This document shows, one piece after another, positions 5,428 through 25,743 of a stretch of DNA of 31,284 bases (its first letter is position 1; each line of letters starts with the position of its first letter). The DNA is from an uncultured Deinococcales bacterium. Lineage in GTDB: Bacteria; Deinococcota; Deinococci; Deinococcales; JAAFIG01. The notes beneath the pieces are model-generated. The model was not told the DNA's origin. It saw only the letters and a list, made by a program, of their open reading frames with translations, and searched no databases. The DNA is taken from positions 1 through 31,284 of the forward strand of contig CAXTTL010000028.1 in the NCBI GenBank assembly GCA_964247135.1, written 5' to 3'. Position numbers and translations under genes: made by a program.

Positions 5428-6261
5428 ATGAGTGAAATCACCAGCACAATCGCCTCGAGTTTGGCGGCGGCTCGAGCCATCACCGACTTTCAACCCGAAA
5501 TCGCCATCATTTTGGGATCGGGACTTGGACCGCTCGCCGAAGACATCGACAGCCAAACAGGAGCCGTGATTCCTTACGCCGACCTGCCAGGTTTCCCAGT
5601 GTCCACCGCGCCAGGACACGCTGGCAAGGCTGTGCTTGGAATGCTCGAGGGCAAACGCGTGATCGCCTTTCAGGGGCGTGTGCACTTGTACGAGGGTTAC
5701 AACGCCAAAGAGGTCGTGCTGCCCGTATCCTTGGCGCACGGGCTGGGCGCGAAAACCCTGTTTGTCTCCAATGCCTGCGGCGGTTTAAACCCTGCCTGGG
5801 AGGCGGGCGACATCATGCTGCAAAACGATTTCATCAATTTTACAGGCACAAACCCGCTGCTTGGACCCAACGACTCGAGCCTCGGACCACGGTTCTTGCC
5901 GCTCATGGGTGGTTACGACCGCGACCTCGCCAGCATCGCCCGTGAAGCCGCTCGAGCTTGCGACCTGGCACTCCGAGAAGGCGTCTACCTGGGCATTACC
6001 GGACCCATGTACGCCCCCAAAGCCGAGTTGCGCATGTACCGCCAGTGGGGCGCGGACGCCATCGGCATGAGCACCGTGCTCGAGGTGATTCAAGCGCTGT
6101 ACCTGGGAATGCGGGTGCTGGGTTTGTCCAGCGTGACCGACATGGCGATTGCCGACCGCGAGGACCACTCGGAGACCAACGAGCAAGCCGTGATTGAACA
6201 GGCGCAAAAAACTGGACCAAATTTTAGAAAACTGGTGAAAAGCATTATCCGTAGGATGTGA
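5428..6261 (+). CDS. punA: Purine nucleoside phosphorylase (trimeric PNP family)
   Basis: ILGSGLG, PGHAG, QGRVHLYEGY, NACGG and GADAIGMST motifs. TAAGAT lies 7 nt before the ATG. Confidence 0.92.
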   Translation: MSEITSTIASSLAAARAITDFQPEIAIILGSGLGPLAEDIDSQTGAVIPYADLPGFPVSTAPGHAGKAVLGMLEGKRVIAFQGRVHLYEGYNAKEVVLPVSLAHGLGAKTLFVSNACGGLNPAWEAGDIMLQNDFINFTGTNPLLGPNDSSLGPRFLPLMGGYDRDLASIAREAARACDLALREGVYLGITGPMYAPKAELRMYRQWGADAIGMSTVLEVIQALYLGMRVLGLSSVTDMAIADREDHSETNEQAVIEQAQKTGPNFRKLVKSIIRRM

Positions 6262-6319
6262 CCGAAGCTCGAGTTTGCTTACTGTTCAGCTTCATCTTTA
6301 CCCGTTAACCTGTACGTTC

Positions 6320-6958
6320 ATGCTGCCGGAAATTTTAAAGAAAATCTATTCCACCTGCGCTCGGGTCGGACGCGACCCGAAAACCGTGCAATTAATCGCC
6401 GTGACCAAAACCAAAACCGTTGCCGAAATACAGAATTTCATCCTCGAGTACGGCAATTTTGCGCTCGGCGAGAACCGAGTGCAAGAGGCATTGCCCAAAC
6501 TCGAGGCGCTGCCAAATGCCGAATTTCACATGCTGGGACAATTGCAAACCAACAAAGTCAAATTCTGCAAAGATTTTAAACTGCTGCACGGCGTGGACAA
6601 CACCAGAATCCTCGAGGAACTTAGCAAACGTGGCGAAGCCTGGGGTTTTGTGCCGCCAGTGCTGCTCGAGATCAACATTGCCAGGGAACCCCAGAAACAC
6701 GGTTTGATGCCCGAAGATGTCGCGGGGGTGCTCGGTGTGGCTCGAGAATTAAACGTGAACGTGCGCGGCTTGATGACCGTCGCCCCGATTGCCCCAGAAG
6801 AAGTTGTGCAAACCGTTTTCCATGACTTACGTCTGATGCGTGATACCCTAGGACTCGAGGAACTGTCCATGGGAATGAGCGATGATTTTGTGCTGGCAAT
6901 AGAACAAGGAGCGACCATGCTTCGTATCGGACGTGCACTGTACGAGGCAGCCTCATGA
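6320..6958 (+). CDS. yggS: PLP homeostasis protein YggS/PLPBP
   Basis: LIAVTK, GENRVQE, GQLQTNKVK, GLMT, LSMGMSDDF and GATMLRIG motifs. ATG 6320 preferred over TTG 6275. Confidence 0.95.
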   Translation: MLPEILKKIYSTCARVGRDPKTVQLIAVTKTKTVAEIQNFILEYGNFALGENRVQEALPKLEALPNAEFHMLGQLQTNKVKFCKDFKLLHGVDNTRILEELSKRGEAWGFVPPVLLEINIAREPQKHGLMPEDVAGVLGVARELNVNVRGLMTVAPIAPEEVVQTVFHDLRLMRDTLGLEELSMGMSDDFVLAIEQGATMLRIGRALYEAAS

Positions 6959-9073: not shown

Positions 9074-10578
9074 TCCAAGTCCTCGGCGTGAAGCTCGAGT
9101 TTGCGGTCAAAGGCTTTCTCGAACAAGCCCGATTGCTTGCTGGCTTCGACCAATTCCACCCGAGGCACTTCGCTGGCAATCAATTTGATTTTCACGGTGT
9201 CTTTGCCCAGTTCAAACTCGAGGTCGGTCACGCGCCCCGCCCTCGCCCGCTCGAGGTATTCTGCCAGCCGCAAACAGGCGCTAAGGCGCAGAAGGCGTTT
9301 GTCATCATCAGGCTCGAGGATGCTTTTGAAATCGCCCAGTTTTGGGTCGCCCTTACGATGGTACTGGGTTAACAACGCCAGCAGCACGTGTTCGCGGTGA
9401 GAAAAGCCTGGCATTTGCGAGTTTAAAATCAAATACGCGCTGTGCTTGTGATGGTCAAAATAATTGACCGCCATGCCGATGTCGTGCAGGTACGCCGCCG
9501 CATCCAAGAGCAACGCCTCGCTCGAGCCGTAACGGTGCAGGCTCTCGAGTCCATCAAAAAGTTTGCGCGTCAGTTTGCGCACGTTGTCGGTGTGCGCCTC
9601 GGGTTGTGGGTACTGCGCGAACAGATTTTGTAGCGCCATCGAACGCACCTCGGGGATCAAATGCGGTTCGGGCAGAAAATGCCGATAAAACGCGCCCTCG
9701 CGCACGCCCTGCCCCGAAATGTGAATGCCCTCGAGCTGGGTTTCGCGCAAGACCGTGCGGTAGACGAGCGCCCCCGCCAGAATCACATCGGCACGGTCAG
9801 GGTGAATTCCAGGCAAGGAGCGCTCACCTTTCTCGAGCTTGAGAAGTTTCTCAACCACCTCCTCGAGCGCCTCACGTTTTAAGAAATACCCGTGAATCAT
9901 GTCAAACGGGTAATTGCTGGCTTTTTGCACCGCCCGAGCCAAATTCCGAATCGTACCACCCATCGCCACCAGCGGCGCTTTTTCTTGCCTGACCCGCTCG
10001 AGTTGCGCCGCCATTTGGGTTTTCACGTGCTTCTCGAGCGCCACAATTTCTTTGGCGTTGGCTTTATCGCCTTTTAAAAATTGTTCGGTCAACCGCACCC
10101 CACCCAGCGGGAACGCCTGCCCACACACAAACCAACGGTTCTCGAGTTTGGACAGTTGTGCGCTGCCGCCGCCCAAATCCATGACCCAACAATTGGCAAA
10201 CACAAAACTGTTCGCCACCGCCAACGCCCCGTACCGCGCCTCATCCTCGCCAGAGAGCACTTTAAACTCGAGGTTTAAGCCAACGGTGCGCGACAAAAAA
10301 TCCTGACTGTTTGCCGCCTCCCGCACCGCGCTGGTGGCAATCACCTCGAGCCGCCCGAGTTTGGTCGCGCCAGCGTAATCGGCATAAAGTTTTAAGGCAT
10401 CCAAAGCGCGTTCAATCGCGTGTTCGTCCAACTCGCCGCTCGAGGCAAACCCCTCGCCCAGCCGCACGGGTTCGCGGATTTCATCGGTCAGTTTAAACCA
10501 ACGCCCTGGTTCGTACTGGTAGACCACGAGTCGTGCCGTGCCCGAACCCATGTCCACAATCCCAATGCGCTCCGTCAT
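9019..10578 (-). CDS. ppx: Ppx/GppA exopolyphosphatase with C-terminal HD domain
   Basis: DMGSGT, ATSAVREA, LSGEDEA, DLGGGS, GGTIR, GVREG and LHDIG motifs. Confidence 0.93.
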   Translation of the reverse strand: MTERIGIVDMGSGTARLVVYQYEPGRWFKLTDEIREPVRLGEGFASSGELDEHAIERALDALKLYADYAGATKLGRLEVIATSAVREAANSQDFLSRTVGLNLEFKVLSGEDEARYGALAVANSFVFANCWVMDLGGGSAQLSKLENRWFVCGQAFPLGGVRLTEQFLKGDKANAKEIVALEKHVKTQMAAQLERVRQEKAPLVAMGGTIRNLARAVQKASNYPFDMIHGYFLKREALEEVVEKLLKLEKGERSLPGIHPDRADVILAGALVYRTVLRETQLEGIHISGQGVREGAFYRHFLPEPHLIPEVRSMALQNLFAQYPQPEAHTDNVRKLTRKLFDGLESLHRYGSSEALLLDAAAYLHDIGMAVNYFDHHKHSAYLILNSQMPGFSHREHVLLALLTQYHRKGDPKLGDFKSILEPDDDKRLLRLSACLRLAEYLERARAGRVTDLEFELGKDTVKIKLIASEVPRVELVEASKQSGLFEKAFDRKLELHAEDLDYRSRRSTPGGKTKRKNA

Positions 10579-10701
10579 GGTTTTATCGTACCTCGAGCCG
10601 CAGGGTTCACCTCCCTCGAGATTTTAAACCCATGAAAACTCGAGATGAAAAATCACCCAGTTTTTGGTTTGGTGACACTCGAAGTCAACTTTAAACGCCT
10701 C

Positions 10702-11166
10702 TTAAGTTTTTAAAACCTGAAAATCAAACACCGTCTCACAATCATCCGCAAACACGCAACGCCCCTCGAGTTGCTCACCCGTCAAAATCCGCTTCAACCA
10801 ATACCGCGCATCGTCCCACATCCACTCGAGCGGCAGTGCATCCAATTCAAACCAGGCGGGATTCATTTCCGCAGTCTCGAGCGCTTCGCCTGTCCAAACT
10901 CGGGTGGTAAAAACATGCACCAACTGATCCCAATCTGGTTTGGCGGGAAACAAAAACTCTACGGTTCCCATAAACGCCAAGTTAGCCTCTAGCACGCGCA
11001 AACCAGATTCCTCGAGCAATTCTCGGGCTGCGGCTTTGGTTGGGGTTTCGTTTGGTTTGATACCGCCACCAAAGCCCGTGGTTTTCCCAGCGCCAAAACC
11101 ATGTTTTTTGAATCCCAGCAACACTCGAGCATCCTGAATTGGAAAGCACAACGTCACCTCGCGCAT
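10702..11166 (-). CDS. Nudix hydrolase (8-oxo-dGTPase/NUDT1-like)
   Basis: Complete Nudix box GGIKPNETPTKAAARELLEESGL, plus KKHGFGAG, EMNPAWF and MWDDARYW as in MTH1-like proteins. Confidence 0.88.
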   Translation of the reverse strand: MREVTLCFPIQDARVLLGFKKHGFGAGKTTGFGGGIKPNETPTKAAARELLEESGLRVLEANLAFMGTVEFLFPAKPDWDQLVHVFTTRVWTGEALETAEMNPAWFELDALPLEWMWDDARYWLKRILTGEQLEGRCVFADDCETVFDFQVLKT

Positions 11167-11213
11167 GAATCGATTAAAGCATCAAAAATGATTTGAAAGT
11201 CATCGGTCAAGCT

Positions 11214-11888
11214 TTAAACGTAATCGACAACCAAGACTCGAGTCTTCACAGGCAGTGTCTCGAGTGTAATTTCAACCTCGCTGGTGCAAGCAAAATCCAC
11301 GTCCTCATCATCAAAAAGCTCGAGAAAATTCGTGATCCAAAACATGTTGCGGGGTTTGTAGGTCAGGGTGCGAAAGTGCATGGGAATGACCAATTTCGGC
11401 TTGACATGTTCGATCAGGATTTGCAAATCACTCAACTCGAGGGTCGGGTGTCCACCCGCCAGCGCCAGCAGCACGTCAATGCCTTCAAAAAACTCGAGTT
11501 GGGCGGGTGTTAGGGCGTTGCCCATGTCGCCCAAATGTCCAACCTGAATGCCGCCTACGTTGATGCGGTACATGCCGTTCTGGTCTGGGTCGTGCTCGGC
11601 GTGGTTGAGTGCTTCCATCGCTTCGATGGCACGAAATTCAATGCCTTGCTCGAGCCTCACGCCGCCAATTCGAGCCAACTCGAGGGCGTTGATGGTCGTG
11701 TGCGAACCTGGAATCAGGTTTTCGTTGCAGTGAAACGAATCGTTGTCGCTCGAGATGATGACAATATCGGCGGGTTCGGAAAAGGTTTTGAAACCGGCAG
11801 TGGCAGGGTCGTAAGGGTCGGTGATGATCGAAACACCACCCTCACTACGGATGCGAAAACTGGCGTGACCGTACCATTTGAGTTTCAT
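11214..11888 (-). CDS. MBL-fold hydrolase with an atypical metal-binding motif
   Basis: WYGHASF, IITDPY, HLGD and VIPMHF motifs. SSDNDSFH occupies the HxHxDH position. ATGA overlap with iolM. Confidence 0.85.
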   Translation of the reverse strand: MKLKWYGHASFRIRSEGGVSIITDPYDPATAGFKTFSEPADIVIISSDNDSFHCNENLIPGSHTTINALELARIGGVRLEQGIEFRAIEAMEALNHAEHDPDQNGMYRINVGGIQVGHLGDMGNALTPAQLEFFEGIDVLLALAGGHPTLELSDLQILIEHVKPKLVIPMHFRTLTYKPRNMFWITNFLELFDDEDVDFACTSEVEITLETLPVKTRVLVVDYV

Positions 11889-13063
11889 GGTTGCACCGTT
11901 GGTTCTGAGTTGGGCAGCAGAATGATTTTCGCATCTTGGCGCGACTCGAGCCGTTTGAAGGCGGCTTTGGCGTCGCGCAGTGCCATTTGGGCACTGACCA
12001 TCGGGCGCATGTCGAGTTTGCCCGATGCCATGAGGCGAATGACGTTCGGGAATGTGCCGTGTCCCGCATGTCCGAGCGAACCCGCGAGGTGCACGCCGCG
12101 CACCTGGTAATGCTCGAGGGAGAGGCTGGTGGGTTTTTCGCTGCGTCCAATGTGCGCAATGGTCGCACCAACCGCCAAGCCCGAAGTGAGCGGGCTGAGG
12201 GTGTGCTGCGGCGCTCCTGCGGCTTCGACCACAAAATCCACGCCGTGACCACGGGTCAACTCGAGCAGCGAGGCGTTCAGATCAAGTCCTGTTGGGTTGA
12301 GGGTGCTGGTTGCACCCAGTTTTTTGGCGATCTCGAGCCGCGACTCACTGACATCCACGGCAATGATTTGTGATGCACCTGCGGCTGCTGCCAAGGCAAT
12401 CGCAGCCAGCCCGATTGGACCGCCGCCAAAAACCACGGTGTACACCCCTGGCTTCCAGGTCGAAAGTCGGTTGAACATGGCGTGATAAGAGACTCCCGTC
12501 GGTTCAACCATTGCACCCAGCAGCATGGCTTGACGCTCGTCTCCGAGGCGTTCGGCAATTTCCTCGAGTTTCCAGCAGTATTTGGCTTTGACCGCAATGT
12601 ATTGCGCCATCGCGCCTGGGGTGGTGAAGCCGAGTTCTTCCATTTGGGTGCAGTGATTCACCAGTCCACGGCGGCAAGCGTCGCAGGTGCCGCACCAGTT
12701 GACTTCTTCCACTGCGACCAAATCACCTTTTGCCAGACCGTGCACATCCTTGCCAAGCTCGAGAATGCGACCACTGAATTCGTGACCGAGAATATTTGGA
12801 AATCGCGTCAAACCAGGGTAGAGCATGTAACCATCCGCGCCAGTCTCAACCATGTGCATGTCCGAACCGCAAATGCCAACCGCGCAAACCTCGAGCAGCA
12901 CTTCATCGCTGGCACATTCAGGGTCGGGCAGGTTGCCAAGCTCGAGGCGCGGGTTGTGCCAGACGCTCGAGCCTGTGCTGACTTTGCGGGTTTGAAGTTC
13001 TTTTTGGGAAAGTTGATACCCAGATTTTGGGTTCCAGTCTGCAATCAATTGTAGGGCGTTCAT
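11885..13063 (-). CDS. iolM: Scyllo-inosose 3-dehydrogenase (IolM-like Zn-dependent MDR)
   Basis: GICGSD, GHE, structural Zn motif CGTCDAC...C and GGGPIG. The segments GSSVWHNP, GYMLYPGLTRFP and GHAGHGTFPNVIRLMASG match Thermotoga IolM as I recall it. RBS AAAGGA supports a start at 13063. Confidence 0.82.
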   Translation of the reverse strand: MNALQLIADWNPKSGYQLSQKELQTRKVSTGSSVWHNPRLELGNLPDPECASDEVLLEVCAVGICGSDMHMVETGADGYMLYPGLTRFPNILGHEFSGRILELGKDVHGLAKGDLVAVEEVNWCGTCDACRRGLVNHCTQMEELGFTTPGAMAQYIAVKAKYCWKLEEIAERLGDERQAMLLGAMVEPTGVSYHAMFNRLSTWKPGVYTVVFGGGPIGLAAIALAAAAGASQIIAVDVSESRLEIAKKLGATSTLNPTGLDLNASLLELTRGHGVDFVVEAAGAPQHTLSPLTSGLAVGATIAHIGRSEKPTSLSLEHYQVRGVHLAGSLGHAGHGTFPNVIRLMASGKLDMRPMVSAQMALRDAKAAFKRLESRQDAKIILLPNSEPTVQP

Positions 13064-13087
13064 TGTTATCCTTTCAAAACGGCTTTG

Positions 13088-13183
13088 GTAGGGTGCGCTT
13101 CTTGACCATAATACGCACCTATCGGGCATGGTCGCCTTGCGCACCACGGGTTTATGGTTGACGGTGCGCAAGGCGCACCCTAC
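13088..13183. repeat. REPIN-like inverted pair of GTAG REPs (class A)
   Basis: 13163-13183 reads GTAGGGTGCGCCTTGCGCACC on the minus strand. The left copy is split (GTAGGGTGCG at 13088, CGCCTTGCGCACC at 13133). Confidence 0.75.
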
Positions 13184-13214
13184 GGGTTGACAATTGAAAA
13201 CCTCGAGCCTTGAT

Positions 13215-13244
13215 TTGCAAAGATTATCAGATATGATATATGAT
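13215..13244 (+). promoter_or_regulatory. Sigma70-type leaderless promoter of gntR overlapped by a candidate GntR operator
   Basis: TTGCAA-18nt-TATGAT-7nt-ATG, overlapped by the dyad TATCA-GATA-TGATA and tandem ATATGAT x2. Confidence 0.55.
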
Positions 13245-13251
13245 TTCAAGC

Positions 13252-13935
13252 ATGGCGCGACGATCCGAACCCAGACCAGAATTAAAGCTCGGGTTTGCCG
13301 CTCGAGCAAGCTCTGGCAACCGCACCGATGGCGTGTTCGATGCGATCAAAGAAGCCATTCTGACCCGAGCCATTCCAAGCGGCACGCCACTGATTGAACA
13401 GCACCTTGCCGAAGAATTTGGGGTCAGCAAAACCCCCGTGCGCGAGGCGTTGCTACGACTTTCCAAAGAGGGGCTTGTGCGGCTCGAGAACACCCGAGGC
13501 GCGAGTGTGGTCGAACTGACCCGCGAAGAGGTGCATGACATTTTCGAGATGCGCCTTTACCTCGAGCCACTGGCACTCGAACAAAGCGCGGCATGGCTTG
13601 GGAAACCTCAACTCAAGGCACTCGAGCAACTGCTGCTGGATGCCGAAAAAGCTGTGGCTCGAGGTGATTTGGTGAAACTCAGTCGCCTCAACATTGACTT
13701 TCACCGTGGTTTGTATGCGCTTGCGCCGAATCAATTGCTGGTCGGTTGGTTGGACGGCTTATCGGATCGCCGAAGGTTGCTGTCGGTGCAAGGTTGGCAA
13801 CGCGAAAACCGCAGTGAAACCGAATGGCAAGAGCACCGCAGCATCCTGGACGCTGTTCAAGCTGGCGATATTCTATTGGCGAAAAAAAGATTAAAAGATC
13901 ACATCAAACGTTTCTCGAGGATTCTCGAGTCGTAA
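13252..13935 (+). CDS. GntR family (FCD) transcriptional regulator
   Basis: LAEEFGVSKTPVREAL HTH, and FCD motifs NIDFH and QEHRSIL. Confidence 0.93.
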   Translation: MARRSEPRPELKLGFAARASSGNRTDGVFDAIKEAILTRAIPSGTPLIEQHLAEEFGVSKTPVREALLRLSKEGLVRLENTRGASVVELTREEVHDIFEMRLYLEPLALEQSAAWLGKPQLKALEQLLLDAEKAVARGDLVKLSRLNIDFHRGLYALAPNQLLVGWLDGLSDRRRLLSVQGWQRENRSETEWQEHRSILDAVQAGDILLAKKRLKDHIKRFSRILES

Positions 13936-13945
13936 AAGGAGTTTC

Positions 13946-14854
13946 ATGCAAGGGATTGTTCCAATTGTTTTTGTGCCATTTGATGAAGCTGGTGGCATTG
14001 ATGAAGCCAGCTTGCGCCGTGTGGTGCGGTTTGAACTCGAGGGTGGTGCGGATGGCATCGGCATCAACGGGTTTGCCTCCGAAGCCTACAAACTGACCGA
14101 CCAGGAGCGCGAGCAGACCGCCGAAATTGTGGCGGATGAAGTCGCCAGGCAAGTGCCTTTGGTGATTGGCATTGCCGCAGGCAGCACCGAAGGCGCCATC
14201 ACTCAAATGAAAACTTTTGCCAAACTCGAGCCAGCGGTGTTCATGGTTTTGCCGCCAGCCACGTTTGATTACACGCCCCAAAGTCTGGTCGAGCATTACG
14301 TGACCCTGGCAAACTCGAGCGACACGCCGATCATGATGCAGCACTCGCCGCACATCGCGCAGTATTCGCACGTGTTGCTCGAGGTCGAACATTTGGCACA
14401 GATGGCGAACCGTGCCGGCAACCTCGGTTATTTTAAGATCGAAGGTCCTGGCGCTCCAGATCGAATGCGAGCCTTAAAACCTCTGATTCCCGAAAACGTC
14501 AAACTGTTTGGCGGCGTCGGTGGAATCAGCTTTCTCGAGGAACTCGAGGTTGGGATTGCGGGTGTGATTCCTGGTGTGGGCTTCAACGAGGTTTTCAAGA
14601 TGGCTTGGAAAGCTTGGAACTTGGGCGATAAGGCTCGAGTTGCCGAGATTTTGACCCAGCATCAACCGCTCGTCAGTGCCGTCTCGAGCAAGGGTCACGA
14701 GTTCTCACTTCATGCCCGAAAACAGCTTGCCAAACGCGCGGGTCTGATCTCGAGCGCCAAGGTTCGCAACCCCAGTGTTGCACCTACCGAAGCCGAAATC
14801 GGGTTAATCTTTCAAACGGCAGATCAATTTAACTTGCGAATCTCGAGGAGATAA
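13946..14854 (+). CDS. DapA/NanA-like class I aldolase/dehydratase family protein
   Basis: PFDEAGGIDEASL, GFASEAYKLT and Schiff-base Lys in YFKIE. RBS AAAGGAG. Confidence 0.88.
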   Translation: MQGIVPIVFVPFDEAGGIDEASLRRVVRFELEGGADGIGINGFASEAYKLTDQEREQTAEIVADEVARQVPLVIGIAAGSTEGAITQMKTFAKLEPAVFMVLPPATFDYTPQSLVEHYVTLANSSDTPIMMQHSPHIAQYSHVLLEVEHLAQMANRAGNLGYFKIEGPGAPDRMRALKPLIPENVKLFGGVGGISFLEELEVGIAGVIPGVGFNEVFKMAWKAWNLGDKARVAEILTQHQPLVSAVSSKGHEFSLHARKQLAKRAGLISSAKVRNPSVAPTEAEIGLIFQTADQFNLRISRR

Positions 14855-14858
14855 ATTT

Positions 14859-15884
14859 ATGAAATCAACCATTGGTGTCGCCATTCTCGGCGCTGGACGC
14901 ATGGGGCAAGAACACGCCCGAAATCTTTTGGGCATCCCCAACGCTCGGGTCGTGGCGATTGCCGACCCAATTCAGGCTGCTCGAGACGCGGCGCAAGTCT
15001 TGACCCGAGCCGAAAAAACCTATGCCGAACCCAGCGATGCCGTCTCTGACCCGAACGTTGACGCGATTATTATTGTCACACCGACCAACACCCACGCCGA
15101 TTTGATCGAAATGGCTGCCTTGGAGGGCAAAGCGATTTTCTGCGAGAAACCCGTGGCGCTCGATTTGACCCGCACCGTCAAGGCGCTCGAGGTGGTCAAC
15201 AAGACGGGAGTGCCGTTTCAGATTGGGTTCAACCGCCGTTTTGACCCGCCGTATATTTTGGCAAAACAAAAACTCGAGGCTGGCGAATTGGGCGCGATTG
15301 AACAGTTTATTTCGGTGATGCGTGACCCCGCGCCGCCGCCGCTCGAGTACCTGAAAATTTCGGGCGGCATGTTTTTGGATCAATCGATTCACGAACTCGA
15401 CTGCGCACGGTTTTTGGTCGGCGAGGTCGAAGAGATTTCGGCGTGGGGGCATGTTTTTGTTGACCCCGCGATTGGCGAAATTGGCGATGTGGACACGGGC
15501 ATGATCAACTTGCGTTTTAAAAACGGGGCGCTCGGCGTGATTCAAAACTCTCGCCGCAGTGCTTACGGTTACGACGTGCGCACCGAAGTGTTTGGCGCAA
15601 AAGGCAAACTGGTCATGGACGCCACGCCCAAAACACCACTCACCCAGTACGGCTCGAGCGGCGTCGGCGCGGGCAAACTCGAGCACGACCATTTTCACTT
15701 TTTCATGGATCGCTTCCGCGAGGCGTACAAGCTCGAGATGGAAGCGTTTTTCAGGTGCTTGGCTTCGGGCACGCAAACCATGCCAGGCGCGAGGGATGCG
15801 CTCGAGAGTCTGCGCTTGGGTGTGGCGGCGACCATCAGTTTGCGTGAGAAACGAACCGTCAAAATTGCGGATGTAATCAAGTAG
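14859..15884 (+). CDS. iolG: Inositol 2-dehydrogenase (Gfo/Idh/MocA)
   Basis: GAGRMG, CEKP, GFNRRFD, SGGMFLDQSIHELD and YGYDVRTEVFG motifs. RBS GAGGAG. Confidence 0.88.
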   Translation: MKSTIGVAILGAGRMGQEHARNLLGIPNARVVAIADPIQAARDAAQVLTRAEKTYAEPSDAVSDPNVDAIIIVTPTNTHADLIEMAALEGKAIFCEKPVALDLTRTVKALEVVNKTGVPFQIGFNRRFDPPYILAKQKLEAGELGAIEQFISVMRDPAPPPLEYLKISGGMFLDQSIHELDCARFLVGEVEEISAWGHVFVDPAIGEIGDVDTGMINLRFKNGALGVIQNSRRSAYGYDVRTEVFGAKGKLVMDATPKTPLTQYGSSGVGAGKLEHDHFHFFMDRFREAYKLEMEAFFRCLASGTQTMPGARDALESLRLGVAATISLREKRTVKIADVIK

Positions 15885-16137: not shown

Positions 16138-16459
16138 GTCAGCCCCTTTTTTGCAATAAAATCACCGCCGATCTCGAGGTTGTCGCTCGAGATTGGGTGC
16201 TTTTATGGTTCTCAATACGTGGGTTTTTAAAAAAAGTTCCAAGATTTTAGGTTTATTCGATTGGGATGCAATCTGAAACCCGATGGTCTTGGATGTGCTT
16301 AGGTCGTGCAGTTTGTTTGGATGAAAATGCGAACTCGGGCGGCTTCGTTTCTGGCGTGGTTGAGCATGGCGGCTTCCTTTCAGGCGGTTATGGAAATTCT
16401 AACCCGAGGCTTAAATTTCAAGTTGTGATTATGTTACCAACAAAATAAGCTGAAGTCAA

Positions 16460-22274: not shown

Positions 22275-24857
22275 CTAGTTTGGCTCGAGCAGCCCGAGTT
22301 TTAGCGCTTTATGGGTCGCTTGAAGACGGTTTTGGCTGCCCAGTTTGACCAGGATGGCACTGACATGATGCCCCACGGTTTTTGTGGAGCGTTGAAGTTG
22401 TTGGGCAATCTGTTTGTCGCTTTGACCGACCACCAAAAGCCGCAGCACCTCGAGTTCTCTGGAGGTCAAACCGCCAGGATTGGTTTTTGTGGTGCGTCGC
22501 GCCCCCCTGGGAATGCCTTTGATTCCCAAATCTTTTAATCGTCGAATCAACCATTGTGCCATCGGACGCGCCCCCAAATCTTCAAAAATCCCCAGCGCCG
22601 CCTTCAGGGCGTTCTCGTCGTCGCTTTCACAAAACGCTCTGGCTGCCTCGTAAGGGCAGTTGAGTTCATGCCAGAACTTGGCTGCCTCGAGTGGCTGCCC
22701 AGCAATTTGCAGGGCGAAAGGGCGGGCAATGTCTGCTGGAATATCGTCCAGGTCGTTCAGTTTCCAACGCCAGTACGCCAACTCGCCCAACAGCCAGGGT
22801 TGCTGCTTCTCGAGCGCCAGGTCGTAAACGGCACGCGCCTCCCGAACGGCATGTTCTTGTTTGCCCTCGAGCCAGAACGCCTCGACCCTGGCAATATAGA
22901 CTTTTCCAAGGCGCTGCAATTCGGCGGTTGGCACCGCGCAAGCCAGCGCCTGGTCGAGCGCCAGCCAAACTTCGGGGTCGCCCCGACGAAGGCGGACCAA
23001 ACCCAGAGCGACCAGGGCTTGAATCCGACTGACGGTTGAAAGCTGCGGGTGGCTTGTCAGGTTTTGAATCAAATCAATCGCCTCTGACCAGCGCCCCTGG
23101 TGAACGAGCCAGACCGCCTTCCAACCCTGAATGTACAGGCGCCAAGAGTCCAGGTCGTGGTCGCTGGTGTAAGCGATCCCTTCATTCAAATAACGTGTCG
23201 CCCGCTCAAACTGCCAGTATTGAACCGATTGCGAGACCAGGTTGGTCCAGGCTCGAGCCGCATGTTCTTCAAGATTTGCCGACAATGCCAGGCGCAGACT
23301 TTGCTCGAGCTGATCCCAGCCCAGATCGGATTGAATTCCCAGCCGTGCCGTGCCGATGTTGTTTAAAGCATGGCTCAGGGTGGCGGTGTCGCCAAATTGC
23401 TGCGCCAAGGACATGGCTTTCTCGCCCCAAAAGATGGTTTGGTCGGCGTCGGAATTTAACATCCTCAATTGCGACAAGTTGCTGTAAGCCATTGCCAACT
23501 GAGGACCCTTGGCGTCAGTTTCCAGAACCTCGAGCGCGGCTTGGGCGTAGCGTTCGGCATCGGCGTTGCGCCCCAGAAACCAGCTCAGGCGCGAAAGCCA
23601 GCGCAGGTTCTCGCCCTCTTTTTCAAAATTTGGCAACGATTGCCAAAAGTTCAAGGCTTGTTTGCGGGCGGCGACGGCGGCTTCCAATTGATCGGTCAGG
23701 TAACACTCGTAAGAGTACGCCTCAAGCACCAGGGCGTGATCGCCAGATTGGTGGTCATTTGAAAATCGCAAGACGCGGGCGTATTGTTCGGCAGCCTCGC
23801 GGTGGGCTTTGAAGGCGGCTGCCCGTCGCGCCGCCTGAATGGCAAACTCGAGCACCGCCGCCCTGTCGTTTGCCGCCTCGGCATGGTGGGCGAGTCTGGC
23901 AAAATCTTGCGTGACTGAGGTTCTCAACGCCTCGAGGATCAGGCTGTGAAGCACCGTTTGACGATGTTGCGCAACGGTGCTCAGCACGGCTTGGCGTGCC
24001 AATTCGTGCCTGAAGGCAAAGCCGTCCGCCTGAACGACCAGCATCCCGCCATCGAGGCAGTTTTGCAGGGCATGAATTTCAGAACCCACGACGGCGTTCA
24101 ACAGCCAGGTTTCCATTCGGGGACCAATCAATGCCGCAGCCTCAAGAACGGCGCGGCTTGAAACCGAAAGCCGTGAAACCCGAGCCAGTACCGCATCGCG
24201 CACGGTGTTGGGTACGGCTTGACCTTGGGCGGCAAGGCTTTCGGTCACGAAAAAAGCGTTGCCTCGGGTTTGCCGATAGAGCACAACACCGTCCAAGCCG
24301 CTGCCTCGAGCCAGCTCGAGAACCGCATGTTCTGAGAGTGCCGGCAAGACCATTCGGCGCACCGCAGGTACGGATGTCAAATCACCCAACAAAACCCGCA
24401 ATGGATGTTGAGCACCCACTTCGTCGTCGCGGTAGGTGGCCACCAGCAGCGTTTTGGTTGCCCCAATGCGCCGTCCCAAGAAACGCAGCAGGTCAAGTGT
24501 GGCTTCGTCCGCCCAGTGGAGGTCTTCAAACACCAACAGTGTCGGCTGAGAACCTTTGCTCAGGTTGGTCAACCATCCCTGAAACATCTGCTCGCGCGAG
24601 GTCTCGGGTGTTTCCAGATTCAGAATTTGAGCGACATCGAGCACAGGTCCGAGCGGTCTTGGGGTCGAAAGTGGGTCGCAAGCGCCAATGGCAACTCGAG
24701 TTGTGGCTTTAACCTCTTGAGACAATTGCTGTACCAGAGCGGTTTTACCAACGCCAGCCTCGCCACCCAAGAAAACCAGATGACCTTGCCCCGATGCTGC
24801 TTGATAAAGCAGCGTTGTCAATTCTGCGATAAAAGGGTTGCGCTCGAGCAAGTTCAT
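22275..24857 (-). CDS. Large ATP-binding LuxR-family regulator (AAA + TPR-like + HTH)
   Basis: Walker A GEAGVGKT, EDLHWADEAT, GNAFF, and C-terminal LTSRELEVLRL...TVGHHVSAILVKLG. TACAAT 6 nt before ATG 24857 fixes the start. Confidence 0.93.
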   Translation of the reverse strand: MNLLERNPFIAELTTLLYQAASGQGHLVFLGGEAGVGKTALVQQLSQEVKATTRVAIGACDPLSTPRPLGPVLDVAQILNLETPETSREQMFQGWLTNLSKGSQPTLLVFEDLHWADEATLDLLRFLGRRIGATKTLLVATYRDDEVGAQHPLRVLLGDLTSVPAVRRMVLPALSEHAVLELARGSGLDGVVLYRQTRGNAFFVTESLAAQGQAVPNTVRDAVLARVSRLSVSSRAVLEAAALIGPRMETWLLNAVVGSEIHALQNCLDGGMLVVQADGFAFRHELARQAVLSTVAQHRQTVLHSLILEALRTSVTQDFARLAHHAEAANDRAAVLEFAIQAARRAAAFKAHREAAEQYARVLRFSNDHQSGDHALVLEAYSYECYLTDQLEAAVAARKQALNFWQSLPNFEKEGENLRWLSRLSWFLGRNADAERYAQAALEVLETDAKGPQLAMAYSNLSQLRMLNSDADQTIFWGEKAMSLAQQFGDTATLSHALNNIGTARLGIQSDLGWDQLEQSLRLALSANLEEHAARAWTNLVSQSVQYWQFERATRYLNEGIAYTSDHDLDSWRLYIQGWKAVWLVHQGRWSEAIDLIQNLTSHPQLSTVSRIQALVALGLVRLRRGDPEVWLALDQALACAVPTAELQRLGKVYIARVEAFWLEGKQEHAVREARAVYDLALEKQQPWLLGELAYWRWKLNDLDDIPADIARPFALQIAGQPLEAAKFWHELNCPYEAARAFCESDDENALKAALGIFEDLGARPMAQWLIRRLKDLGIKGIPRGARRTTKTNPGGLTSRELEVLRLLVVGQSDKQIAQQLQRSTKTVGHHVSAILVKLGSQNRLQATHKALKLGLLEPN

Positions 24858-25110
24858 TTCATCATTGTAGGTCTTAGGGCACGGCACGATAATGTGGCTA
24901 TGTTGACTTTTGATCAGCAAATTGAAATTCAAGGAATGCTGCAAATCTCGAGAGTGTATTCTGTAAATAACAAAATTTAAGAATAGGATTTATGCTTCAA
25001 TGTAATTTTTACCCTCAAGGTACACTGTTTGCCTACTTCGCATTACACCCTACCAACCCGCCCGAAACGAATCCCGTCCCTTAACCCACACCCCACCAGC
25101 CGAGGTCGCC

Positions 25111-25743
25111 ATGCGCAACGATCAACTGCCACTCTTTGAACTCCCAGAACTCCAACCCCCAGCACCACTTCACCCACTCGAGCGACAAAACGTTTCAACC
25201 CGCCTCGATTTAACCGACGGCTTAAGAATTGCCGCCCAAGACATGATCAACCGCATCCCAGACTTGCAACACATCAAACTCGAGCGAGTCCACTTTGCCG
25301 TGTTCTTCACGCGCAAAGCCAGCCGCACGCTGACCTATGCGCGTTGCTATCCACTCAGCCGCGAAATCAAAACCAAAGGACGGCGCAGTTTCAAACTTTC
25401 CAAAGTCCTGACCAACGCCAACCTCGAGGCGCGATACCTGCTGGCATTCGCCTGGGAACGCTACTGGGAAATGACCCCCCGCGACCGTCTCGAGACGCTG
25501 GTACACGAGCTGTATCACATTGGACCAAAGTTTGACGGCGAGGCTCGAGCCTTTGCGACGGGCGGCTGGCACGGACAAGGACGGGTTTGGTTTGACAAGA
25601 TCATTCATAATTTGTGCGAAAAATACTGCCCGCACGGTCTGGAATTCAAACACGAGGTTTTGGGACTCAAACTCGACCCCGAACTCGAGGTGCAATTCGA
25701 TAAATTGCGCCTGCCACGTTGGGAATTGGTGGTCAACAAATAA
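25111..25743 (+). CDS. Putative zincin metallopeptidase (HExxH)
   Basis: LETLVHELYHIGPKFDG with a downstream His (GWH). RBS GAGG. Confidence 0.75.
   Translation: MRNDQLPLFELPELQPPAPLHPLERQNVSTRLDLTDGLRIAAQDMINRIPDLQHIKLERVHFAVFFTRKASRTLTYARCYPLSREIKTKGRRSFKLSKVLTNANLEARYLLAFAWERYWEMTPRDRLETLVHELYHIGPKFDGEARAFATGGWHGQGRVWFDKIIHNLCEKYCPHGLEFKHEVLGLKLDPELEVQFDKLRLPRWELVVNK

Follow-up and report, generated by a model that had tools for sequence, protein, structure and literature searches.

The window analysed here is the whole of contig CAXTTL010000028.1, a stretch of 31,284 nucleotides from the assembly of an uncultured Deinococcales bacterium (5.09 Mb in 386 contigs, 84% complete; the window is its contig C28). 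Positions 11214-15884 hold five genes, called the island below, which were assigned from the list of open reading frames (ORFs) and from Pfam and NCBIfam: a protein of the metallo-beta-lactamase (MBL) fold, the dehydrogenase IolM, a GntR/FCD regulator, a member of the dihydrodipicolinate synthase (DHDPS) family and the dehydrogenase IolG. An initial annotation of the DNA had described a divergent, GntR-associated inositol cluster of five genes at this place, and its gene content and coordinates were confirmed; its interpretation found partial support. The features are as follows.

10702-11166, minus strand: NUDIX hydrolase (PF00293, 51 bits), a possible passenger of a variable segment, of uncertain membership in the island.
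11214-11888, minus strand: MBL-fold metalloprotein, 224 aa (PF13483 Lactamase_B_3, 125 bits).
11885-13063, minus strand: IolM-type Zn-dependent medium-chain dehydrogenase (scyllo-inosose 3-dehydrogenase family), 392 aa (NF041097, 501-502 bits against a cut-off of 450).
13064-13239, no strand: divergent promoter region, the 176-bp spacer between IolM and the regulator, with promoter-like sites in both directions.
13240-13935, plus strand: GntR-family regulator with an FCD effector domain, 231 aa (PF00392, 59 bits; PF07729, 86 bits).
13946-14854, plus strand: Schiff-base enzyme of the DHDPS/N-acetylneuraminate lyase (NAL) family, similar to L-2-keto-3-deoxyarabinonate (L-KDA) dehydratase ("DapA-like"), 302 aa (PF00701, 96 bits).
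14859-15884, plus strand: IolG-type inositol 2-dehydrogenase of the GFO/IDH/MocA family, 341 aa (TIGR04380, 385 bits against a cut-off of 355).
16168-16196, plus strand: terminator-like hairpin 3' of IolG, an 11-pair stem followed by a T-rich tail (consensus match only).

The gene spacing is compatible with two divergent operons. On the minus strand the start of the MBL gene overlaps the IolM stop by 4 bases, and on the plus strand 10 bases separate the regulator from the DHDPS-like gene and 4 bases separate the latter from IolG; the coupling of iolM to an MBL-fold gene and the DapA-like gene followed by iolG had both been noted before and are seen here. The start of IolM was taken as the ATG at 13063, and a longer ORF beginning with TTG, which reaches to 13309, extends outside the coverage of the NF041097 model. 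The promoter-like sites of the IolM/GntR spacer lie at 13077..13048 on the minus strand and at 13210..13237 on the plus strand. The regulator belongs to the GntR/FCD family, with the GntR helix-turn-helix at the N-terminus and the FCD domain at the C-terminus according to Pfam. Housekeeping genes flank the island (a deacetylase, Ppx and the NUDIX gene on the left, HD-GYP and SurE on the right), and none of IolN, IolO, IolE, IolD, IolB and IolC was found by Pfam or NCBIfam in the island or in the rest of the window.

The spacer also carries, at 13084-13175, inverted copies of a short GC-rich element (GGTGCGC...GCGCACC) whose 14-mers occur 10-51 times genome-wide. It looks like a dispersed repeat of the repetitive extragenic palindromic (REP) or miniature inverted-repeat transposable element (MITE) type rather than an operator.

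The two dehydrogenases are recognised by curated family models. The match of IolM spans positions 1-387 of the 389 in NF041097 and passes the equivalog cut-off, and the protein scores just 139-198 bits with the NCBIfam models for idonate or threonine dehydrogenase. Its best solved relative is 3ip1 (305 bits, full length), the next being a threonine dehydrogenase at 144 bits. The catalytic and structural Zn residues of the Zn-dependent medium-chain dehydrogenases/reductases are conserved in the family alignment, in which all or nearly all of the 32 representatives, the window's included, share C65, H94, E95, C124, C127, C130 and C138. A search of 1.84 billion representatives gave about 30 clusters at 50% identity for the full-length IolM-like proteins. 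The NF041097 cut-off is exceeded by 22 of the 37 scanned IolM-like proteins, the window's included (range 282-549 bits), and the window's IolM is therefore an ordinary member by this model. The island IolG is the second copy in its genome and has 51% identity to the IolG of an operon on another contig, C15, which is described further below.

The partner switch of IolM follows its phylogeny. A metagenome scan seeded with eight diverse IolM members returned 80 loci, of which 41 were counted as IolM family (coverage from residue 1 or identity of at least 37%), the rest being threonine-dehydrogenase-like. Partners were inspected in 28 of the 41, the longer loci being chosen, over 3.3 kb on each side, and 126 of the 143 ORFs found there were sent to NCBIfam. 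IolN scored over its cut-off in 8 of these 28 loci, often with IolO or tagaturonate-pathway genes close by. Over all 41 loci, IolG (at least 39% identity) adjoins IolM in 12, the DHDPS-like gene was found in none, and a PF13483 MBL gene only in L094, whose IolM is 66% identical to that of the window. The neighbourhoods with IolG and with IolN connect the IolM family with inositol. The phylogeny, computed by FastTree from 62 IolM and 5 outgroup sequences, consists of two sister clades. Clade A (30 tips, support 0.881) contains the window and every locus linked to an MBL or DHDPS-like gene, while clade B (32 tips, support 0.963) contains every IolN-linked locus (n=8), and there is no overlap of the two kinds of partners between the clades. 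Some tips of this tree are one contig fetched twice (L013, L064), and the tips counted as having no partner include short or uninspected loci. On average, the IolM of the window is 73% identical to the members of clade A and 44% to those of clade B. The neighbourhood is conserved across two phyla, and nothing came up that the initial annotation had named as refuting its proposal.

Three other loci of the IolM family deserve mention. L014, from a Chloroflexota metagenome-assembled genome, has an IolM 80% identical to the window's and is placed among Deinococcota sequences in the tree, which could be due to gene transfer or to a binning error. In L073 a 672-aa ORF (9187-11205) directly follows a clade-B IolM; its C-terminal 250 aa are IolO-like (252 bits, below the cut-off) and its N-terminal ~400 aa have no Pfam or NCBIfam match. 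This ORF could be an artefact of ORF calling or the product of fusion to an enzyme of unknown kind. L068 represents a second, independent MBL-IolM neighbourhood; its IolM belongs to clade B, lacks an IolN within 3.3 kb and has a different MBL-family gene (5856-6680; PF00753/PF12706) two genes upstream.

Next to its phylogeny, the gene order around IolM was compared among close relatives. A scan of the genome collection with the window's IolM gave 25 close loci from Deinococcota and Chloroflexota (65-91% identity), one further match being unrelated. Related genomes are not independent samples and several of the loci are the same contig fetched twice, so the co-occurrence counts given here should be read as associations rather than as tests in the statistical sense. 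In 17 of the 25 loci the DHDPS-like gene is found no more than ~4 kb from IolM, usually in divergent orientation, and in 12 of these the MBL gene is not adjacent; of the 8 loci in which the DHDPS-like gene is missing, 4 offer less than 2.5 kb of sequence upstream. IolM is immediately followed by the MBL gene in 7 loci, the MBL gene is 5.5 kb off in one more, and IolG at 40% identity or above is adjacent in 2. In L011, L012, L013, L015, L017, L028 and L029 an ortholog of the GntR regulator separates the DHDPS-like gene from IolM. The arrangement of the island is not a chance one.

From a sample of 301 Deinococcota genomes, the window's included, 13 have IolM; 12 of these pass the cut-off, and the 13th (G202) has five in-frame stops. 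The MBL ortholog adjoins IolM in 9 of the 13, and a paralog of 37-38% identity does so in 2 (G183, G247); in G273, IolM and the MBL gene are both at contig ends. On the closed chromosome of G185, IolM is present and no MBL ortholog was found. The DHDPS-like ortholog adjoins IolM in 7 of the 13. At an identity of at least 60% it occurs in 8 Deinococcota genomes, namely seven with IolM and G297, a genome of the same genus as the window in which one contig ends right after the DHDPS-like gene and IolG, and an MBL fragment lies with a NUDIX gene at the end of another. The DHDPS-like gene was never seen without IolM in a genome where that could be judged. In another genome of the genus, G274, all three genes (IolM, MBL and DHDPS-like) are missing; it is syntenic with the window up to a point just past Ppx, at window position 10620, and its contig ends 1.46 kb further on. 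Because of these contig ends the borders of the island are only partly resolved from same-genus genomes. The NUDIX gene of the window follows the MBL gene on the same strand at a distance of 47 bases. In G297 it adjoins the MBL fragment, in G274 the syntenic site has neither it nor the island, and in the other related loci it was not found.

Some Deinococcota loci depart from this pattern. The module on contig C14 of G202, the same contig as L017, is decaying, with five in-frame stops in IolM, one in the MBL gene and a seemingly intact DHDPS-like gene. In L055 and L059 (G238, G247) an RmlD-like NAD-dependent reductase or epimerase precedes IolM instead of the DHDPS-like gene; further neighbours of IolM in G247 are an SMP-30 gluconolactonase-family gene and a GMC oxidoreductase.

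Most Chloroflexota IolM loci have no MBL gene. They have the DHDPS-like gene followed by a dienelactone-hydrolase-family gene, and IolM followed by a luciferase-like (F420-type) oxidoreductase, a beta-propeller protein and a major facilitator superfamily (MFS) transporter; Enolase-superfamily, FAH and SDR genes are near several of them. Five Chloroflexota genomes were examined, chosen as their IolM locus lacks the MBL gene. It was found that 4 of the 5 carry an MBL ortholog elsewhere (59-65% identity), and in all four of these (G301, G302, G304, G305; L162-L165) it is part of a same-strand series IolB-MBL-IolD-IolG. The literature searched gave no description of such an order. Conserved secreted or lipoprotein-like proteins of ~594 aa and ~204 aa flank IolM in L022, L023, L026-L031, L033 and L035. 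They were considered as hidden hydrolases and rejected, having signal-peptide-like N-termini and no Pfam match.

The MBL-fold protein has TM0207 (1vjn) as its best solved relative (E 5.7e-25). Its AlphaFold2 (AF2) model has a mean pLDDT of 89.2, and Foldseek matched it to 1vjn with TM 0.75/0.86 and probability 1.00; ranks 3-14 are UPF0173 proteins, a cAMP-bound MBL-fold protein and UlaG. The UlaG structures come at ranks 10-14 with 18-19% identity, and the name UlaG for this protein comes from automatic COG labels only. The usual HxHxDH motif is not present; SSDxDxFHC (SSDNDSFHC) stands in its place. Residues of the metal-ligand type, D24, D50, H53, H96, H118, D121 and H171, are invariant in 131 homologs, and within the motif C54 is found in 125 and D48 in 115 of the 131. 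The metal site thus looks remodelled under selection rather than dead. Altogether 1262 homologs carry the labels "UlaG/COG2220" or "MBL fold", and the ESM Atlas returned generic MBL clusters only. In the tree of these proteins the IolB/IolD-linked members from Chloroflexota nest within the IolM-linked orthogroup and have the same motif, and most of those from IolM-less Deinococcota genomes are on other branches with variant motifs. The orthogroup is found either with IolM or inside a canonical-type iol operon, the genomes concerned having IolM as well as IolD, and the MBL protein is tied firmly to inositol genes.

The DHDPS-like protein is neither DapA nor a typical aldolase. It scores 72 bits with the dapA model of NCBIfam against a cut-off of 206 and 65 bits with nanA against 382. 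Its best solved relatives, at E 6e-30 over the full length and with a weak score of 108 bits, are 3fkk and 7c0c, which are L-KDA dehydratase. For the enzyme of Azospirillum brasilense, the review PMC9795676 describes Lys171 as forming the Schiff base, Gln143 as occupying the position of the catalytic Tyr of aldolases, and Glu173 and Glu200 as bases, the latter for the C5 proton. K164, Q132 and E166 of the island protein align to Lys171, Gln143 and Glu173, and these three residues and an FGGVGG stretch are invariant in 32 of 32 homologs (56-100% identity), all of which therefore have Gln132 at the Tyr position of the aldolases. From these residues the protein looks like a Schiff-base beta-elimination enzyme rather than an aldolase. 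The "DapA-like" label given initially is thus misleading. The L-arabinose oxidative pathway is not indicated by the context, as no arabinonate dehydratase or semialdehyde dehydrogenase was found in the window. At E 1e-30 or better, 381 homologs belong to the family, all of them named only generically.

The genome was also searched for other inositol genes. Contig C15 (~20279-32545, locus L045) carries a canonical operon DeoR-IolB-IolG-IolC-IolD, with scores against cut-offs of 274/205 bits for IolB, 353.6/355 for IolG, 389/300 for IolC and 896/715 for IolD. At a distance of 6 kb, beyond a RecQ-like helicase and two unannotated ORFs, is an IolE-like gene (206 bits against 290). The island is therefore an extra inositol-type gene set and does not replace IolE/D/B/C; the statement in the initial annotation that its genes act instead of the canonical ones is right insofar as none of these lies in the island, but not for the genome. 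IolD is over its cut-off in 13 of 14 Deinococcota genomes (the 13 IolM-positive ones and G297) and is split over two contigs in the 14th, G235; the background is 115 of the 301 genomes over the cut-off, or 121 of 301 at E 1e-150 or better. These 121 comprise all 20 Deinococcota genomes with an MBL relative of at least 52% identity, as well as the fragmentary G297, which supports the tie of the MBL protein to inositol genes. IolE-like genes of 140-300 bits occur in 122 of the 301, usually adjoining IolD and also in MBL-positive genomes, and at 198-214 bits they are found elsewhere in all five Chloroflexota genomes. (The IolD and IolE tallies include one unpublished genome, G252.) We take it that TIGR04379 under-calls IolE in Deinococcota, because most of these scores are below its cut-off of 290. 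The order IolB-MBL-IolD-IolG, in which IolE is lacking, had suggested that the MBL protein replaces IolE, and this was ruled out by the IolE-like genes.

IolN and IolO did not score over their cut-offs in the 84% complete genome, the best matches having 70 bits against 245 and 100 bits against 300, respectively; their absence from the cluster, as first annotated, is thus extended to the available genome. IolN was also not over the cut-off in any of the 14 Deinococcota genomes (best 95 bits) or of the five Chloroflexota genomes whose IolM locus lacks the MBL gene, and no Creatininase-family match was found among 125 ORFs of 9 related loci. A TIM-barrel gene that follows the MBL gene in L011 and L012 was considered as IolO or IolE and is unsupported (27-30 bits).

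In Thermotoga, IolN opens a cyclic diketone to 5-keto-L-gluconate; the pathway intermediates are given in PMC5931981. As our preferred reading, which we hold tentatively and rate as somewhat short of an even chance, we propose that the island provides inositol (cyclitol) catabolism with an accessory branch of patchy distribution beside the canonical pathway, in which the MBL and DHDPS-like enzymes stand in for IolN and IolO. IolG would oxidise an inositol to an inosose and IolM would oxidise the inosose to a cyclic 1,3-diketone, after which two non-orthologous enzymes would do the jobs that IolN and IolO have in Thermotoga. The MBL protein would carry out a metal-dependent hydrolysis, by ring opening or lactone-type cleavage, and the DHDPS-like enzyme would eliminate water by a Lys-Schiff-base beta-elimination, either from a cyclic keto compound or from the opened keto acid. 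The end product would be a deoxy-keto acid that enters central metabolism. The order of the two steps and the stereoisomer are left flexible in this scheme, and as an alternative within it the MBL protein may serve an intermediate shared by both branches. The predicted metal hydrolase and Schiff-base dehydratase are the only candidates in the conserved set for the downstream steps. They differ in their distribution: the DHDPS-like enzyme is an IolM-specific partner, and the MBL protein belongs to inositol gene sets more generally. A stronger form of the proposal appears doubtful to us, namely that clade-A IolM marks an undescribed inositol branch with two new activities. One would be a DHDPS/NAL Schiff-base enzyme that dehydrates or opens a cyclitol-derived di- or triketone, the first of its family to act on a substrate other than a 2-oxo acid. 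The other would be an MBL protein that hydrolyses a cyclic diketone or enol-lactone at a remodelled Asp/His/Cys site, and this protein would be an unrecognised member of inositol operons in Chloroflexota and Deinococcota.

Several points weigh against the proposed branch, besides the non-independence of the genomes. The roles of all four island proteins are predictions from sequence, and we know of no carbon-carbon hydrolase of the MBL fold. The DHDPS/NAL family usually needs a 2-oxo acid, which the known IolM/IolN product is not, and the position of Glu200 is taken by V191/G192 of the invariant FGGVGG stretch in the one pairwise HMMER alignment made. The absences of IolN and IolO are provisional because the genome is only 84% complete. 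IolG stands beside IolM in the window, G297, L018, L019 and L094 only among the clade-A loci, so that the link between this clade and inositol depends in part on the family models and on genome co-occurrence. As for the MBL protein, no ortholog of it accompanies IolM in G185 and G303, and G183 has just a paralog. Conversely, relatives of 52-65% identity are present in nine IolM-less Deinococcota genomes in mixed contexts: in two genomes the neighbours are IolB, IolG and an aldo-keto reductase, in another two a GFO-family or SDR dehydrogenase, in one malate synthase, and in the remainder unrelated genes. The IolB-MBL-IolD-IolG order in Chloroflexota, which places the MBL protein inside iol operons, loosens the claim that it must act on the IolM product, and its job may belong to the canonical pathway or to a shared intermediate.

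In a second explanation, IolM and the DHDPS-like protein form the functional pair. The Schiff-base enzyme would dehydrate or open the cyclic keto product, comparable to type I dehydroquinase on a cyclohexanone, and the MBL protein would have a general role in the inositol regulon, where its substrate could be the shared intermediate scyllo-inosose, a reactive by-product of the dicarbonyl type, or a phosphate or ester of inositol. The occurrence of the DHDPS-like ortholog in eight sampled Deinococcota genomes, seven with IolM and the eighth, G297, cut by contig ends, agrees with this, and so does its presence near IolM in 17 of the 25 loci from two phyla, 12 of which have no adjacent MBL gene. 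The invariant dehydratase-type Lys, Gln and Glu also fit, as do the occurrence of one MBL orthogroup either with IolM or in IolB-MBL-IolD-IolG and the MBL relatives located 0.5-1.3 kb from IolB-IolG in two IolM-less genomes. However, the substrates that PMC9795676 describes for the DHDPS family are 2-oxo acids only, and the DHDPS-like gene is missing in 6 of the 13 IolM-positive Deinococcota genomes. Moreover, about 100 IolD-positive Deinococcota genomes have no MBL protein, and any role of it in the canonical pathway must therefore be dispensable. On balance we consider this pairing unlikely.

A third explanation assigns the MBL protein more exactly, as a non-orthologous IolN that opens the diketo-inositol to 5-keto-gluconate, with the DHDPS-like enzyme acting on the keto acid in a self-contained route of four enzymes. 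This was the proposal of the initial annotation. It accounts for the translational coupling of IolM and the MBL gene and for their adjacency in 9 of the 13 Deinococcota genomes and in L018, L019, L020 and L094. No IolN was found wherever clade A was searched, the partners of clades A and B are mutually exclusive, and at the level of whole genomes the core MBL orthogroup accompanies IolM, also in the four Chloroflexota genomes in which they are not linked. However, canonical iol genes are in the same genomes, so that the route does not stand alone, and this part of the proposal was not upheld. IolG adjoins IolM in only a minority of the clade-A loci. The MBL orthologs between IolB and IolD, the presence of IolM without the MBL protein in G185 and G303 and the loss of the canonical metal motif also speak against it, and the DHDPS family usually acts on 2-oxo-3-deoxy acids, to which 5-keto-gluconate does not belong. 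We regard this explanation as improbable to the same degree as the pairing of IolM with the DHDPS-like enzyme.

Lastly, the genes could be unrelated to inositol and form a module of the Weimberg or L-glucose type, with an IolG-like enzyme for the oxidation of an aldose at C1, the MBL protein as the lactonase, an IolM-like enzyme for the oxidation of the aldonate and the DHDPS-like enzyme as the dehydratase of a 2-keto-3-deoxy acid. Known non-phosphorylative pathways do combine a GFO-family sugar dehydrogenase, a lactonase and a DHDPS-family L-KDA dehydratase (PMC9795676); in Paracoccus a scyllo-inositol dehydrogenase also serves as L-glucose dehydrogenase, and oxidation of L-gluconate gives 5-keto-L-gluconate (PMC12632266). 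The MBL protein is labelled after the lactonase UlaG, whose structures are among the Foldseek matches, and the Enolase-superfamily, FAH and SDR genes near several Chloroflexota loci would suit such a module. But IolG and IolM pass their curated equivalog cut-offs, IolM with 502 bits against 139-198 for the idonate and threonine dehydrogenase models, and MBL orthologs lie inside canonical iol operons; for these two reasons the sugar-oxidation explanation is less likely, and since the island also lacks an aldonate dehydratase and a semialdehyde dehydrogenase and all genomes with IolM or the MBL protein carry IolD, we judge it very improbable.

When compared with the oxidative inositol pathway of Thermotoga maritima (IolG, IolM, IolN, IolO; TM0411-TM0416), the island shares the IolG and IolM families, and the first two oxidations would be alike. 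It differs in having no IolN or IolO, in an IolM of a separate clade that is ~44% identical to the IolN-linked members, in its MBL-fold and L-KDA-dehydratase-like partners, and in the canonical pathway that coexists in the genome. With the canonical myo-inositol pathway of the Bacillus subtilis type (IolG, IolE, IolD, IolB, IolC, IolJ, IolA) IolG is shared; IolE, IolD, IolB and IolC are not in the island, and no role in that pathway has been described for IolM, the MBL protein or the DHDPS-like protein. The DHDPS-like enzyme keeps the equivalents of Lys171, Gln143 and Glu173 of A. brasilense AraD (3fkk, 7c0c), and its carboxylate-binding loop is also of the divergent type, whereas Gly stands at the Glu200 position and the arabinose-pathway context is lacking. 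The MBL protein shares the fold and family of TM0207 (1vjn) and the UPF0173/UlaG-like hydrolases (PF13483, COG2220), with the C-terminal His, Asp and His ligands kept, but SSDNDSFHC replaces the HxHxDH of TM0207.

To our knowledge, only two bacterial inositol routes have been described, the canonical IolE/IolD route and the Thermotoga route of IolM, IolN and IolO. The island points to a third arrangement in environmental Deinococcota and Chloroflexota, where IolM is kept and both downstream enzymes are swapped. No description of an IolM module with these partners was found in the literature searched, which excluded the original Thermotoga paper and much of the subscription literature. If the proposed steps are true, they would be new chemistry for the MBL fold and for the class I aldolase fold of DHDPS/NAL, and the 1262 MBL and 381 DHDPS-like homologs with generic names would gain a name. 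For annotation, the labels "DapA" and "UlaG" are misleading here, and the presence of IolM does not imply the Thermotoga pathway.

Two further gene groups were noted apart from the inositol genes. On contig C15, at 36076-36966 on the minus strand, an MppR-like protein of the enduracididine biosynthesis family (244 bits against a cut-off of 380) adjoins a pyridoxal phosphate (PLP)-dependent decarboxylase and a gene similar to class C beta-lactamases and penicillin-binding proteins (PBP). In the window, a large AAA_16 and LuxR-type (GerE) regulator (22275-24944, minus strand) adjoins a gene with a phage-metallopeptidase-like domain (25111-25743, plus strand), and both are unrelated to the island.

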